Below are positions 1-4,668 of a DNA stretch of 4,668 nucleotides, one piece after another. This stretch comes from a virus. Lineage: Duplodnaviria; Heunggongvirae; Uroviricota; Caudoviricetes. Position 1 is the stretch's first letter. Every line of letters begins with the position of its first letter. A program made the position numbers and the translations under genes. The notes beneath the pieces were generated by a model. That model was not told the DNA's origin. It did no database searches and worked only from the letters and a program-made list of their open reading frames with translations. The stretch lies in the IMG/VR virus record IMGVR_UViG_3300012155_000088, positions 1-4,668 of that record, one strand, 5' to 3'.

Positions 1-100
1 ACCCATCTTTACGCATTTGATCTGGAACAGGTTTAACAGCGGATTATCAGGTCATTAAGCAAATATAACGCCCTGAGAATTTCGACAGGCAAAAGAAAAA

Positions 101-123
101 GGGGTTAGCATTTAGCTAACCCC
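101..123 (-). terminator. Rho-independent terminator hairpin (9-bp stem GGGGTTAGC/GCTAACCCC, 5-nt loop) immediately 3' of the tRNA fragment; possibly bidirectional
   Basis: Seen in sequence: perfect 9-bp inverted repeat at 101-109 and 115-123. On the minus strand it is followed by TTTTTCTTTT (complement of 91-100); on the plus strand by TTATCTTATTT (124-134). It lies about 10 nt downstream of the tRNA CCA end. Terminator function is inferred from this structure. Confidence 0.55.
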
Positions 124-133
124 TTATCTTATT

Positions 134-193
134 TGGCGGAAGCGCAGAGATTCGAACTCTGGAACCCTTTCGAGTCGCCGGTTTTCAAGACCG
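134..193 (-). tRNA. serT: Partial tRNA-Ser(UGA): 3' 60 nt only (anticodon stem-loop, long variable arm, T arm, acceptor 3' strand, CCA); 5' half absent; likely att core copy at the element boundary
   Basis: Reverse complement of 134-193 reads CGGTCTTGAAAACCGGCGACTCGAAAGGGTTCCAGAGTTCGAATCTCTGCGCTTCCGCCA. It contains an anticodon loop CTTGAAA (anticodon UGA), a long class-II variable arm, a T-loop GTTCGAATC and a terminal CCA. From memory it matches the 3' part of E. coli serT with about one mismatch. Sequence beyond 193 (AAGAAAAATAAAG...) cannot form the D arm or acceptor 5' strand, so the gene is truncated. Confidence 0.8.
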
Positions 194-334
194 AAGAAAA
201 ATAAAGAAAAATCAGTGCAATACGCAAAATAGCTGAAAAGTTAATCAGACTTAACACCAAGAAAAATCAAGATATTAGGGAGCTATTCAGAGTTAATATA
301 CCAAGTCTTTTTGCCAGAAAATTTTCTGGATTGC
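194..334. promoter_or_regulatory. Putative att arm between the core and int: A-rich, with three direct copies of AAGAAAAAT and an IHF-consensus-like site
   Basis: Seen in sequence: AAGAAAAAT at 194-202, 204-212 and 259-267, the last two extended to AAGAAAAATCA. AATCAAGATATTA at 265-277 fits the IHF core consensus WATCAANNNNTTR. The region contains no ORF and sits where lambda-type arm sites would be. Int or IHF binding is inference only. Confidence 0.4.
314..329. repeat. Perfect 16-bp palindrome CCAGAAAATTTTCTGG, 5 bp downstream of the int stop codon
   Basis: Seen in sequence: the 16-mer equals its own reverse complement. It is not followed by a T-tract on either strand, so it is not a canonical intrinsic terminator. 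It may be a protein-binding site or an RNA hairpin at the int 3' end. Confidence 0.5.
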
Positions 335-1354
335 CTACTTACTGACCACAAGCGGCAAATCCAGTGTTGGGGTGATTTTGGTTTTACGATCGTAAATCAA
401 CACCTGATTTTCTGTTTTGTGTCCACTGAAAATTTGTTTGTCGCGACTGCTGCCTTCGTAATCTGAAATCCCTTTGGCTTTTATGTCATGGAAGTTGCAC
501 CCAAACGGAACGCCGGCTTTTTGCTCGGCTGCACGTTTAGCCTGATTCCACCAGTTGTTCAGCGTCTTGGCTATTACCTTCCCGCCTTTGGTTGTGTTGA
601 TCACATACTCGCATGTGCCGGAAGATACATTTCGGGCTAACTGGATCGCCGTACGTAATCGCGGAGACCATTCCTTGATTTGTTTAGTGCCGGTCTTGTT
701 TTGCTCAATGTAAATCCCTTTATCCATAATATCCTGCCATTTCAGCTCGAGTACATCACCGAGCCTTGCCGCACAAAGATAGGATATCTCCATTGCAATA
801 CGTAACTGTGGAATTGCTTCCGCATATATTGCAGCATACTGTTCATCGGTGATGTAAACAGTACGGGCTTTAAGTGTGAATTTTCTGACTCCTTTGCATG
901 GATTATTTTTCACATACCCACGCTCATATCCCCATCCGTATACACGGCTCAGACTTGCCAGTTCATGGTTTGCCTGGGTCTTGCTCTCAAGTCCTCGCTT
1001 ATCCATGAAAATTCTTACCTGTTCAATTTTTACATTATCAGCAAGCACTTTTCCGAATACTGCCAACAATACCCTTTGATGTTGCCGATAATCTTTTTGG
1101 GTTCGGGGGGCCAGTTCTGTAAATGCAGGGGAGTCCATAAACATGTGCCATAATTTAGCGACGGTCATTATGTTGTGGAGTTTTGCTTTTTCCAGCTCAT
1201 AATTTTGCCAGACTTTAGCTACGCTGGTTTCCCGCACTCTTCCGAGCCCTATAGTTCTTGTGCTTCCTTCGGGTTTCCATACGTAACTGTAACCATTCGA
1301 TCTAACACGCGGTGGTAGTGCATTATCTTTTTTGTTTTTTCTTGGTCTTCCCAT
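335..1354 (-). CDS. int: Tyrosine-type site-specific integrase, phage lambda Int family (339 aa)
   Basis: The N-terminus MGRPRKNKKDNALPPRVRSNGYSYVWKPEGSTRTIGLGRV parallels the lambda Int arm-binding domain (MGRRRSHERRDLPPNLYIRNNGYYCYRDPRTGKEFGLGRD, from memory). The catalytic-domain blocks AARLGDV (Arg I), YIEQNKTG (Lys), FHDIK (His), FSGHK (His II) and LIYDRK (Tyr nucleophile) are in lambda-like order. RBS GAGG sits 9 nt upstream of the ATG at 1354. The gene lies next to the tRNA-derived att site. Confidence 0.95.
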   Translation of the reverse strand: MGRPRKNKKDNALPPRVRSNGYSYVWKPEGSTRTIGLGRVRETSVAKVWQNYELEKAKLHNIMTVAKLWHMFMDSPAFTELAPRTQKDYRQHQRVLLAVFGKVLADNVKIEQVRIFMDKRGLESKTQANHELASLSRVYGWGYERGYVKNNPCKGVRKFTLKARTVYITDEQYAAIYAEAIPQLRIAMEISYLCAARLGDVLELKWQDIMDKGIYIEQNKTGTKQIKEWSPRLRTAIQLARNVSSGTCEYVINTTKGGKVIAKTLNNWWNQAKRAAEQKAGVPFGCNFHDIKAKGISDYEGSSRDKQIFSGHKTENQVLIYDRKTKITPTLDLPLVVSK

Positions 1355-1574
1355 TGTTCAGCGCCTCAAAATCGGGTTCAGCGGAAACCAGTTCAGGTGC
1401 TTTTGGCATCGTAGTCAGTCCGTGTGGAATATCCCTGCGAAGAACTATTGGTTCGTTTTTAGGACCGATTACAAATGGGATACCGTGCAGCCTTAACTGG
1501 TGTTGCTGTTTTGTGTATCGCTCGTATTTCGTGATCTCTTGAATCTCTGCTGGCGATAGAGTTAATTCGTACAT
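1323..1574 (-). CDS. xis: Excisionase (lambda Xis-like, 83 aa); its 3' end overlaps the int start by 32 nt
   Basis: Small basic protein immediately upstream of int and overlapping it, as in lambda xis-int. The N-terminus MYELTL resembles lambda Xis MYLTLQEW and the basic tail NNGKTKKKQKR resembles lambda RIRNGKKAKS (from memory). Only a weak AAGG lies about 12 nt upstream of the ATG. Confidence 0.8.
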   Translation of the reverse strand: MYELTLSPAEIQEITKYERYTKQQHQLRLHGIPFVIGPKNEPIVLRRDIPHGLTTMPKAPELVSAEPDFEALNNGKTKKKQKR

Positions 1575-1640
1575 GTGGTCACGTGCCTTACAGCATGACC
1601 GCCGCCAATATAATTCGGAGACGGCGATCAGGGTTGAACA

Positions 1641-4112
1641 TTAAAAATCAACCGGATTCGGGATCAGTTTTTGCCAGATAGCTGAAACGTATTTTGCCTG
1701 GTAACGAGCGTCATCAAGTGCATTGTGGCACTCACCTTCGAATGGAATATCCGTTATGGCATCGAAGTCTATGGCTTTCCCCAGCTCAACGATTGTGCGT
1801 ACATCGCGATCGTTGCAGTAGCGCCACGGGCAGGGGATACCCTGTCGTTCGTATGAACGGCGTAAAATCACGTTGTCGAAGTTGGCTCCATTCCCCCAGA
1901 CCTGGACAAAAAATTCACCGGAGTTTTCGTCGATAAATTCCCGCAATTGCAGTAGTGCATCATCTAACGGAATTTCATCGGTCAGAAGGGCAGATTGCGC
2001 CTCGCGTGATTGCTTGAGCCACCATTTTATGGTGTCACGATCAATGACTCCGCCAGTAGTTTCCAGATCGATGGTCTTGCTAAATTCCGGCCCCATATCT
2101 CCGGTTTGCGGATCGAAAAATATTGCACCTATTGAGATAATCGGGGCATCTGGATTTTTTCCCATGGTTTCAAGGTCGATCATTAGATGGTCACACGTCC
2201 CGCTGGTGGATGTGCTTTCATGATGACCGTTCACCTTAACTGAGTGATCTGTCGCCTCACCAGTTTCATTATCGCTGGCGTGGTCCTGAGCGCTGCCAGC
2301 ATTCTCCTTGTGTTGATGTTCAGCGCCTTCCATTTCCTCTGGATCATTTTCCTGAACTTCAACCTGATTCTCTTCATCGAATGTTTCCTGGTATGTTGCG
2401 TCGCCCATAACCGCGCCACAATCAGGGCAGTTGCCGCCACCGCTCTGACCGCAGGCGGTGCAGACTTTTTCCGGTTCCTGTTGCGCTACTGGCTCAGGTT
2501 GTTTCGTTTCTGGCTCGTTTTGTAACGCATTTTGGCTGTTTTGTTCCGCTTTCTGGTCGTTCTGTTCCGATTCTTGCTGGTTCTGGTTTACAGAATCGCG
2601 GGTTTCAATCCCCTTCACCCATTTCGGATCATTCGGGTCGCTAATCCCTGCAACAAATTCTCCGCGAGAGGCAGCAAGCAACTTATCGGCGTCAGGCTGG
2701 CTGATATTGGCTGCCTGCATAATTTTGTTTACTTCGTCAGCGGTAACTTTTACCGGCTCTGGTTGTGCGGTCGTGTCAGATGCACCAGTATTTTGTTGTG
2801 AACCTGAGTATGTACCGTTTTTGCGGGCGAAATATTCTTCTTTCGTGATTTCAGTAGCCCCGGCAGCCAGCGCCTTATCCAGACCAGAAAGTTTGTTTGC
2901 ACGACCATATTTTTCGCCATCCTTATCTGTGAAGAGGAAGTAGAACGGCCCCTCACGCTCTACAGATGGTTCGACTTCCACTTTGCATTCGGTTTTTTCG
3001 TTGTCCGGAATTGCCGTTTCCACTGCATCAGTTTCTGGTACTGGCGACGAGAGAGTATCAGTTGCGCTCTGATTTGTTCCTTCATCTTCAAACACGCCCT
3101 TTGTAGTCAGGTATTCAGTAATGTATTTGTTCAGTGCCACAGGGTCTTTGTGAATGTCGATCGGACGTTCACGGACAAGGCCAAAAATAGTCTGGCGGTC
3201 GTAGCGAAGGGCATCAGGCTGTTTGCGCATTGATGCCGAGATACGCTTCCAGTCTTCGCGGTCGTTGTCGATAACTTCATTTTTTGCCCAGCGATGGATG
3301 CTGCCGTCAATGTTTCCGGCATCAATGTCACCAGGCCACAGAGCGTAGGCCAGTTCATCATCCAGTGTTTTCCATGTCTGCTTGTATTCGCGACGAATGG
3401 TGGCAGTGGCTGGGGGGATTTTCGCTACTGAGTTTTCAGTGTTCTGCCGGTTGACTCTGGCGCGGGCAAGATCAACAACAGACGTGTATTTCCCGGTTTC
3501 TTTGCGTTCGGCTTCGCGACGTTTTTTCCAGGTGCGTAATTCTGTCTGGATCTCAGGCCATTTTGCACCCGGCTTACATTTATGTTTAACCCACCTGATG
3601 GCGAGCAGCTTAAGCTCTGAATACATGACGTTAACTTCAGGCATTTTCATCAATGCCTCAACGATATGCCCGTTGAATGTTGTCATGTCCTCCTGCAGTA
3701 ATTCCTGAGCACTAATCACCATATCAACGGTGATGTTTTCACATGTACCGAACTTAACCAGGACCGCGTTCTGTACTTCAAGGGACAGCTTGTCAAAATT
3801 GACGTTCATCGGATCGGATTCTGGTTCGACCGGAACAAAGGAAGCGCCTTCCTCATCCCAGCGGTTTTCCAGCATATATTCGGTATCCCAGGAGTCGATG
3901 GCAGGGCGGGGCATGCCGGGTTTATCCTCGCAAACAAGAAATTTATAAGCGCAGTCCTGAGCAGTCGGATATTGCTCCAGGAATTGCCAGGTAAATTTGG
4001 CACGGGCGCGGTGTTCGTCGCCGGCTTCAATGGCAGTGGCTACAGCGACTGCACCTTCTTCCTTTATTGCCTGTTCGTCCGGAATGGCGGCGCAAATAAA
4101 GACTTTACTCAT
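1641..4112 (-). CDS. Large modular prophage exonuclease (823 aa): unassigned N-terminal region, acidic Q/E/N-rich linker with Cys4 zinc ribbon (possibly RecE-like), C-terminal DnaQ-like DEDDh 3'-5' exonuclease domain
   Basis: Single uninterrupted 823-codon ORF with RBS GAGGT 8 nt upstream of the ATG at 4112. Exo I motif MIDLETMG (D646, E648), Exo II WGNGANFDNVIL (D746) and Exo III ECHNALDDARY (H796, D801) are seen directly, with spacing typical of DEDDh exonucleases. Zinc-ribbon motif CTACGQSGGGNCPDC at residues 551-565 (nt 2418-2462). The central segment DADKLLAASRGEFVAGISDPNDPKWVKGIETRD and the Cys4 block appear, from memory, to resemble the middle of E. coli Rac RecE. Confidence 0.85.
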   Translation of the reverse strand: MSKVFICAAIPDEQAIKEEGAVAVATAIEAGDEHRARAKFTWQFLEQYPTAQDCAYKFLVCEDKPGMPRPAIDSWDTEYMLENRWDEEGASFVPVEPESDPMNVNFDKLSLEVQNAVLVKFGTCENITVDMVISAQELLQEDMTTFNGHIVEALMKMPEVNVMYSELKLLAIRWVKHKCKPGAKWPEIQTELRTWKKRREAERKETGKYTSVVDLARARVNRQNTENSVAKIPPATATIRREYKQTWKTLDDELAYALWPGDIDAGNIDGSIHRWAKNEVIDNDREDWKRISASMRKQPDALRYDRQTIFGLVRERPIDIHKDPVALNKYITEYLTTKGVFEDEGTNQSATDTLSSPVPETDAVETAIPDNEKTECKVEVEPSVEREGPFYFLFTDKDGEKYGRANKLSGLDKALAAGATEITKEEYFARKNGTYSGSQQNTGASDTTAQPEPVKVTADEVNKIMQAANISQPDADKLLAASRGEFVAGISDPNDPKWVKGIETRDSVNQNQQESEQNDQKAEQNSQNALQNEPETKQPEPVAQQEPEKVCTACGQSGGGNCPDCGAVMGDATYQETFDEENQVEVQENDPEEMEGAEHQHKENAGSAQDHASDNETGEATDHSVKVNGHHESTSTSGTCDHLMIDLETMGKNPDAPIISIGAIFFDPQTGDMGPEFSKTIDLETTGGVIDRDTIKWWLKQSREAQSALLTDEIPLDDALLQLREFIDENSGEFFVQVWGNGANFDNVILRRSYERQGIPCPWRYCNDRDVRTIVELGKAIDFDAITDIPFEGECHNALDDARYQAKYVSAIWQKLIPNPVDF

Positions 4113-4192
4113 TTTGTTTTAACCTCATTACAGATTTAAGGGTGAACAAATCCCTGCCATTGCTGGCATCTAAAAATAAAACCGGATATTAA

Positions 4193-4396
4193 TTACGGTG
4201 CTGCTTTAAGTCCTGCCGGGATTTCGTTATTGTCCATGCGAATAACTTTATCAACCGGATAACAGTTGCCGGGAATTTTCTGTTCCGCTGCGGCAGCCAT
4301 GCATTCTTTCATTGAACCGTAAATGTCAATAACCAGGTCAACAGGCTCGCCCGTATTAAGAAAAACTGTCAGAGTGAGAGCAATTGCTGTATTCAT
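4193..4396 (-). CDS. Hypothetical small protein (67 aa from the ATG at 4396) with an N-terminal hydrophobic segment; translationally coupled to the upstream ORF
   Basis: The ATG at 4396-4394 overlaps the upstream ORF's TGA stop in an ATGA arrangement. AGGA lies 8 nt upstream of this ATG. The N-terminus MNTAIALTLTVFL is hydrophobic. A longer in-frame form starts at 4450 (85 aa; KR followed by a hydrophobic core, signal-peptide-like) but has a poor RBS and a 58-nt overlap with the upstream ORF. No recognisable family. Confidence 0.5.
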   Translation of the reverse strand: MNTAIALTLTVFLNTGEPVDLVIDIYGSMKECMAAAAEQKIPGNCYPVDKVIRMDNNEIPAGLKAAP

Positions 4397-4581
4397 TGCC
4401 AGCATCCTTTTTGCATCGGGCGTAAACGTGCCAGCATTGAAAGAATGCATATTTTATTTAATAGCTCCCGTTCGTGTTTTCTCTTATTAATGGCATCTTC
4501 AGTAAATGCAGGGTTACTGATTCTGACACCAATTTCAAAACAACCTTCAGACGTATTAACGTTTGGTAATAACGTTTCCAT
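4393..4581 (-). CDS. Hypothetical small protein (62 aa from the ATG at 4581); reading frame stays open to the window edge, so it may be 5'-truncated here
   Basis: Strong RBS GAGGA 7 nt upstream of the ATG at 4581. The stop overlaps the start of the downstream ORF. The same frame has no stop codon between 4582 and 4668, so the true start could lie beyond the window. No recognisable family. Confidence 0.5.
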   Translation of the reverse strand: METLLPNVNTSEGCFEIGVRISNPAFTEDAINKRKHERELLNKICILSMLARLRPMQKGCWQ

Positions 4582-4668
4582 TATCGCGTCCTCAACAATG
4601 AATTTTGTGATGCGGTGCCTGGTGCCTCCAGGTGACGTTAACCAGTTAACAATTAACGCCGGATACAG

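Follow-up and report, generated by a model that had tools for sequence, protein, structure and literature searches.

A displaced tRNA-Ser fragment at the junction between the Escherichia coli chromosome and a lambdoid prophage

Features of the junction region

The 4,668-nt stretch of DNA analysed here (the window) begins with bacterial intergenic DNA, followed by a transcription terminator, the 3' part of a tRNA-Ser gene, an A/T-rich arm, a tyrosine integrase gene (int) and a small gene that overlaps the int start, all of them assigned to the minus strand (Table 1). When read on that strand, the tRNA fragment is CGGTCTTGAAAACCGGCGACTCGAAAGGGTTCCAGAGTTCGAATCTCTGCGCTTCCGCCA (the reverse complement of positions 134-193) and it aligned without gaps to nucleotides 29-88 of the 88-nt serT gene of E. 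coli K-12, with 59 of the 60 bases identical. Its first base is the second of the anticodon stem, and from there it continues through the anticodon loop, the long variable arm, the T arm and the 3' strand of the acceptor stem to the CCA end. The anticodon loop CTTGAAA corresponds to window positions 183-189 and the anticodon TGA to 185-187. ARAGORN found no tRNA gene anywhere in the window and Rfam gave no tRNA match in it, so the 28 nt of the serT 5' part are absent. The homology to serT ends exactly at 193/194, where the K-12 gene goes on as ...GGCAC and the window as ...TTTTTCTT. On the other side, window positions 1-193 matched the serT 3' part, the terminator and the yccA-side flank of K-12 at 192 of 193 positions. 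The three local features proposed in an earlier sequence-only reading of this DNA, namely a Ser tRNA present only as its 3' half, a terminator in its 3' flank (the 11-bp hairpin and T run described in Table 1) and an abrupt end of the tRNA homology at 193/194 where int-bearing element DNA begins, were thus all borne out; the alignment to K-12 is also the alignment to a host tRNA-Ser(UGA) gene that this reading had called for. For annotation purposes, no tRNA pseudogene of unknown origin needs to be called at 134-193. The remaining Rfam matches, ctRNA_p42d (on the terminator), STnc100 and Hrs13, scored far under their gathering scores and were taken as chance matches or generic hairpins.

Table 1. 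Features of the junction region and the evidence on which each was assigned
Feature	Position in window	Strand	Evidence or remark
Host chromosome, serT-yccA intergenic region downstream of serT, with the terminator's T run at about 89-98	1-98	-	Identical to K-12
Host serT intrinsic terminator hairpin: 11-bp GC-rich stem and 5-nt loop, followed by TTTTCTTTT	99-125	-	Identical to K-12
Identity block of attB and Evi attP, the duplicated att core: serT nt 29-88 plus AATAA, 65 nt	129-193	-	Four-way alignments and core listing
Displaced 3' fragment of serT, tRNA-Ser(UGA)	134-193	-	59/60 to K-12 serT nt 29-88; no tRNA called; not a functional gene
Private substitution in the fragment	173 (A on + strand)	-	C to U in tRNA sense; variable-arm C-G becomes U-G
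Anticodon-loop segment flanked by the dyad CGGT/ACCG; probable strand-exchange region	183-189	-	Inference from the anticodon-centred class
Int-proximal attP arm, A/T-rich	194-334	-	Conserved in Evi attP and all lysogens
AAGAAAAAT(A/C)A repeats in the int arm	194-204, 204-214, 259-269		
TATACCAAGT motif	297-306		Degenerate copy, containing a match of the TATACCAAG motif search, at 253-260
Perfect 16-nt palindrome CCAGAAAATTTTCTGG	314-329		5 nt past the stop codon of int; conserved in Evi and CEA224S
int, tyrosine integrase of the lambda Int family, 339 aa	335-1354	-	Pfam, structure match, Evi Int
DUF4224 protein, 83 aa; overlaps the int start by 32 nt	1323-1574	-	Xis position

The integrase was recognized by Pfam (Phage_integrase, PF00589, 34.6 bits against a cut-off of 27.1) and matched lambda Int structures over its full length, the N-terminal part included (residues 1-318 against 1-339, E 7.5e-18); structures of the lambda Int catalytic domain were matched as well. 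At the amino acid level it shows about 25% identity with lambda Int and lambda-group integrases and 99.4% with the Int of Escherichia phage Evi. The DUF4224 gene is a putative excisionase gene by virtue of its position. Short motifs recur on the attP arms. The TATACCAAG(T) motif appears three times in the far arm of the Evi attP (L002 2963-2995) and once in the int arm (L002 3204-3213, equivalent to window 297-306); this motif and the AAGAAAAAT(A/C)A repeats are candidate arm-type sites for the integrase or for an accessory factor.

Two other features lie farther from the junction. An 823-aa protein is encoded on the minus strand at 1641-4112 and contains the YdfE_N and YdfE_C domains, a C-terminal Rv2179c-like 3'-5' exoribonuclease domain, a Q/E-rich linker and a CxxC...CxxC motif. 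Its homologues are labelled exodeoxyribonuclease VIII (RecE) in several phage records, a label unsupported by this domain content. In Qin-like prophages, small RNAs are encoded upstream of dicB. Upstream of dicB (4393-4581) in the window, a weak and partial Rfam match to STnc100 was located on the minus strand at 4562-4668, truncated where the window stops (20.1 bits, E 0.29; gathering score 47); it is probably a chance match.

Comparison of attB, attP and both prophage ends

Four sequences were compared: the attB of K-12, the attP of phage Evi (LR597642.1), the int-proximal junction and the far junction. An empty attB, the comparison that the sequence-only reading had proposed, is provided by K-12 MG1655, a strain without the element in which an intact serT lies between yccA and hyaA with nothing inserted. 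As to the phage side, Evi covered 89% of the window (91 to 4668) at 91.8% identity, and from position 129 rightwards the match is to its attP-int-xis-exonuclease region. The Evi attP carries the A/T-rich arm and the 60-nt serT segment next to int, followed by AATAA, a diverged terminator hairpin and phage DNA with effector and tail-fibre genes. Similarity to Evi extends in a patchy manner out to about window position 91 because the phage carries its own copy of the terminator.

From the second base of the anticodon stem to 5 nt beyond the CCA, attB and the Evi attP are identical. The same comparison with an attP from IMG/VR (contig L008) gave an identity block of 77 nt; in this contig and in a second one from IMG/VR (L009) the serT core is bounded by phage-type flanks. 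The phage copies of the terminator found 3' of the serT core (L002 of Evi, the far end in L004, L008 and L009) have diverged from the host terminator but all keep the 11-bp hairpin. The stem is preserved by paired changes, the host having TTAGC/GCTAA versus TTACC/GGTAA or GGTAG in the phage copies. These paired changes suggest selection for termination of the regenerated serT as the putative role of the phage hairpin.

Concerning the two ends of the prophage, the int-proximal junction has the same composition (phage arm, core, host terminator and yccA) in the window and in the genomes of CEA224S, Z0117EC0133 and STEC711. The opposite end of the prophage, roughly 29 kb away in Z0117EC0133 and 45 kb away in CEA224S, has an intact tRNA-Ser(UGA) gene next to hyaA. 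The 3' flank of this far end in Z0117EC0133 is of the Evi type (AATAATCAAGGGGTTACCAAATGGTAGCCCC...) and not the host terminator. At the sequence level, the pattern formed by attB, attP and both ends is the reciprocal one that site-specific recombination of attP with serT should produce. Simple deletion, misassembly and free phage DNA were each rejected as readings on this four-way comparison. The earlier reading had proposed a displaced att core of 60 nt, left by integration into a tRNA gene, and had predicted an intact serT at the far end. The displacement was confirmed by the comparison of attB, attP and both ends in the relatives, and the intact gene was seen in the complete genomes of two of them, Z0117EC0133 and CEA224S. 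The extent of the core, however, had been set too short: it is at least 65 nt (129-193) and runs 5 nt past the CCA.

In our opinion the window very likely spans the int-side junction formed by a lambdoid prophage integrated in the E. coli serT gene; by the lambda convention, this junction corresponds to attL. A variant of this explanation is that the junction is real and the element behind it has been rearranged or has decayed, so that its far end is no longer at serT, for instance by recombination with a lambdoid prophage of the ompW type; in that case the fragment would say nothing about the other boundary. The prophage of Z0117EC0133 is indeed a decayed version loaded with IS elements, the exonuclease-dicB region is shared with ompW-type prophages (about 93% identity), and STEC711 combines an int end of the serT type with an ompW far end. 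In this last genome (NZ_CP041416.1; L010 and L011, matching about window 1-340) an Stx2k prophage shows the yccA-side junction and ends at a partial ompW (its 3' part) next to yciE, so a far end at serT is not guaranteed. Such a layout is the expected product of recombination between directly oriented serT and ompW prophages. Yet this recombination would delete about 280 kb and with it the only serT, and collapse of the assembly is at least as likely an origin for the STEC711 layout. Both far ends that were inspected lie at serT and, among the 12 junction-bearing records listed, 11 have at least two copies of the core; the only record with a single copy is that of STEC711. We therefore consider a rearranged far end quite unlikely for the window.

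The source contig and the frequency of the junction

An exact search with the 823-aa protein of 1641-4112 yielded a single 20.9-kb metagenome contig (ENA ERZ27241829, k141_78950), in which the window is present at 100% identity. Beyond window position 1, this contig holds 8 kb of host genes (yccA, tusE, yccX, rlmI, hspQ, mgsA, helD and yccF); a comparison of 2185 nt with K-12 gave 99.3% identity. On its opposite side the contig enters a lambdoid early region with a repressor gene, cro and O/P-like replication genes, and it stops inside the prophage, the far end of which lies outside the contig. Since the contig runs into host genes one way and into a lambdoid early region the other way, the window is an E. 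coli chromosome-prophage junction from a metagenome.

We looked for the junction elsewhere with a query of 82 nt across it, to be covered at 80% or more. Of 5426 complete E. coli genomes, 752 (about 14%) contained it, and it was inspected in three of these. In total there were 6260 matching places in 5428 records, approximately the number expected if each genome has one serT and each junction-bearing genome one fragment besides. Among the GTDB species representatives, the exact junction was present only in E. albertii NBRC 107761, in a contig beginning at the core; this genome is not the source of the window. This draft contig (L005) and two IMG/VR contigs of the same prophage (L006 and L007) start at or inside the serT core, a repeat at which short-read assemblies commonly break.

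These breaks and the short-read metagenome assembly from which the window comes are what would speak for an artefact, in which phage DNA was joined to the chromosome through the tRNA repeat or the 5' half of serT was dropped. We give this explanation a very small probability: the same junction occurs in hundreds of complete genomes, which rules out misassembly, an origin that the sequence-only reading had itself considered. In addition, the contig name contains the number 141; if this is the k-mer size, as we read the name, it exceeds the length of the repeat (60-77 nt), and the repeat alone would not bring about a false join. The chance that the window is free phage DNA, that is an attP, is negligible and is ruled out by the host flank and the host genes of the contig, for although Evi and the IMG/VR contigs also combine this int with this tRNA segment and then a similar hairpin, window positions 1-128 are identical to K-12 and unlike all the phage-type flanks, and the source contig runs on into yccA, tusE, rlmI and helD.

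Position of the crossover

As its identity block begins within the anticodon stem, this is an anticodon-centred (class A) tDNA att site. Integrases of the lambda type exchange strands within a short overlap, and strand exchange most likely takes place in the 7-nt anticodon-loop segment at 183-189, by analogy with the class of the site. The description of the whole block from the anticodon loop to the 3' end as the crossover segment was therefore overstated, because the exchange would use only a short overlap within it. Likewise, position 193/194 had been taken to fix one boundary of the element to the nucleotide. It is a homology breakpoint only, and the edge of the element is defined only up to the duplicated core.

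No polymorphism was found to partition between the two ends: all the core copies examined are identical except for the private change at 173 in the window, so the crossover is not locatable by polymorphism. The variant at 173 was absent from every other copy of the core examined, whether in attB, attP or junctions. In agreement, 12 of the 12 full-length junction matches listed had 98.8% identity, equivalent to one mismatch in 82 nt, and only one of the 5428 records reached at least 99% with the junction query, so that at most this record could share the variant. We also considered the change as a phage-borne marker, which would put the crossover 3' of the variable arm; this was discarded, as no lysogen or attP copy examined has it. 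The substitution is best taken as a base-call error or as a mutation in DNA on which selection has ceased to act.

Proposed integration into serT

According to the very likely assignment of the window to the int-proximal junction, integration would proceed as follows. The phage attP carries serT nucleotides 29-88, a few bases past the CCA and its own terminator hairpin. A tyrosine integrase of the lambda family would recombine this block with the identical block of the chromosomal serT. At the far end, next to hyaA, the 5' 28 nt of the host gene would be joined to the phage-borne 3' part and the phage terminator, and a full serT would be regenerated. At the int end, next to yccA, the original 3' 60 nt of the host gene and the host terminator would be left behind, the former as the non-functional fragment at window 134-193. 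The far junction in the genome from which the window derives is predicted to read, from the hyaA side, serT 5' 28 nt, core and a phage-type terminator (AATAATCAAGGGGTTACC...).

A further question is whether the displaced tRNA half is inert. It lies on the int strand, 141 nt beyond the int stop codon, with the host serT terminator coming next. Since the three elements are co-linear, int transcripts could end in a tRNA-like 3' module consisting of the variable arm, the T arm and the 3' strand of the acceptor, and there is a slim chance that such transcripts would be processed or stabilised by tRNA-maturation enzymes. If this were the case, an RNA containing the tRNA half would be produced or the stability of the int mRNA would be altered. 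After int, the free phage likewise has such a tRNA half and a hairpin, an argument against any switch confined to the prophage state.

Relation to known systems

The serT gene has been described as a prophage site in STEC O121:H19 (PMC8767318), in STEC CC119 with three integration patterns (PMC10132054) and, for an Stx2f prophage, in E. albertii (PMC10673567). These prophages share with the window the locus and the lambdoid type in Escherichia; the site is given there without the anatomy of att. E. albertii NBRC 107761 has a related junction. Likewise, the recognition of island ends by a regenerated target at one and a displaced fragment at the other, and the existence of a class of anticodon-centred sites, have been published (Islander; Hudson, Lau and Williams 2015, PMC4383910, where the att-site classes are restated citing Williams 2002). 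The window is the same in kind as the anticodon-centred islands of Islander, with a crossover position assumed from the class. The junction is accordingly ordinary: a common site, a textbook mechanism and an already known kind. Its value is for annotation only, as it sets one end of a lambdoid prophage, with serT as the target and an integrase of the lambda Int family.

The closest known system is phage Evi, which has the window's Int (99.4% amino acid identity) together with its int-proximal arm and, in attP, its 60-nt serT segment. Evi represents the free-phage form, in which the core is followed by the phage's own terminator copy, the TATACCAAG repeats and the effector and tail-fibre genes, whereas in the window it is followed by host DNA; the early genes of Evi differ from those of the window by about 8%. 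The resemblance to lambda includes a full-length Int homologue, an int gene next to attP, a small overlapping gene in the position of xis and repeated motifs on both attP arms, which are candidate sites. In contrast, lambda integrates in the gal-bio intergenic region whereas the target here is a tRNA gene, and the gene in the xis position belongs to DUF4224 instead of the lambda Xis family.
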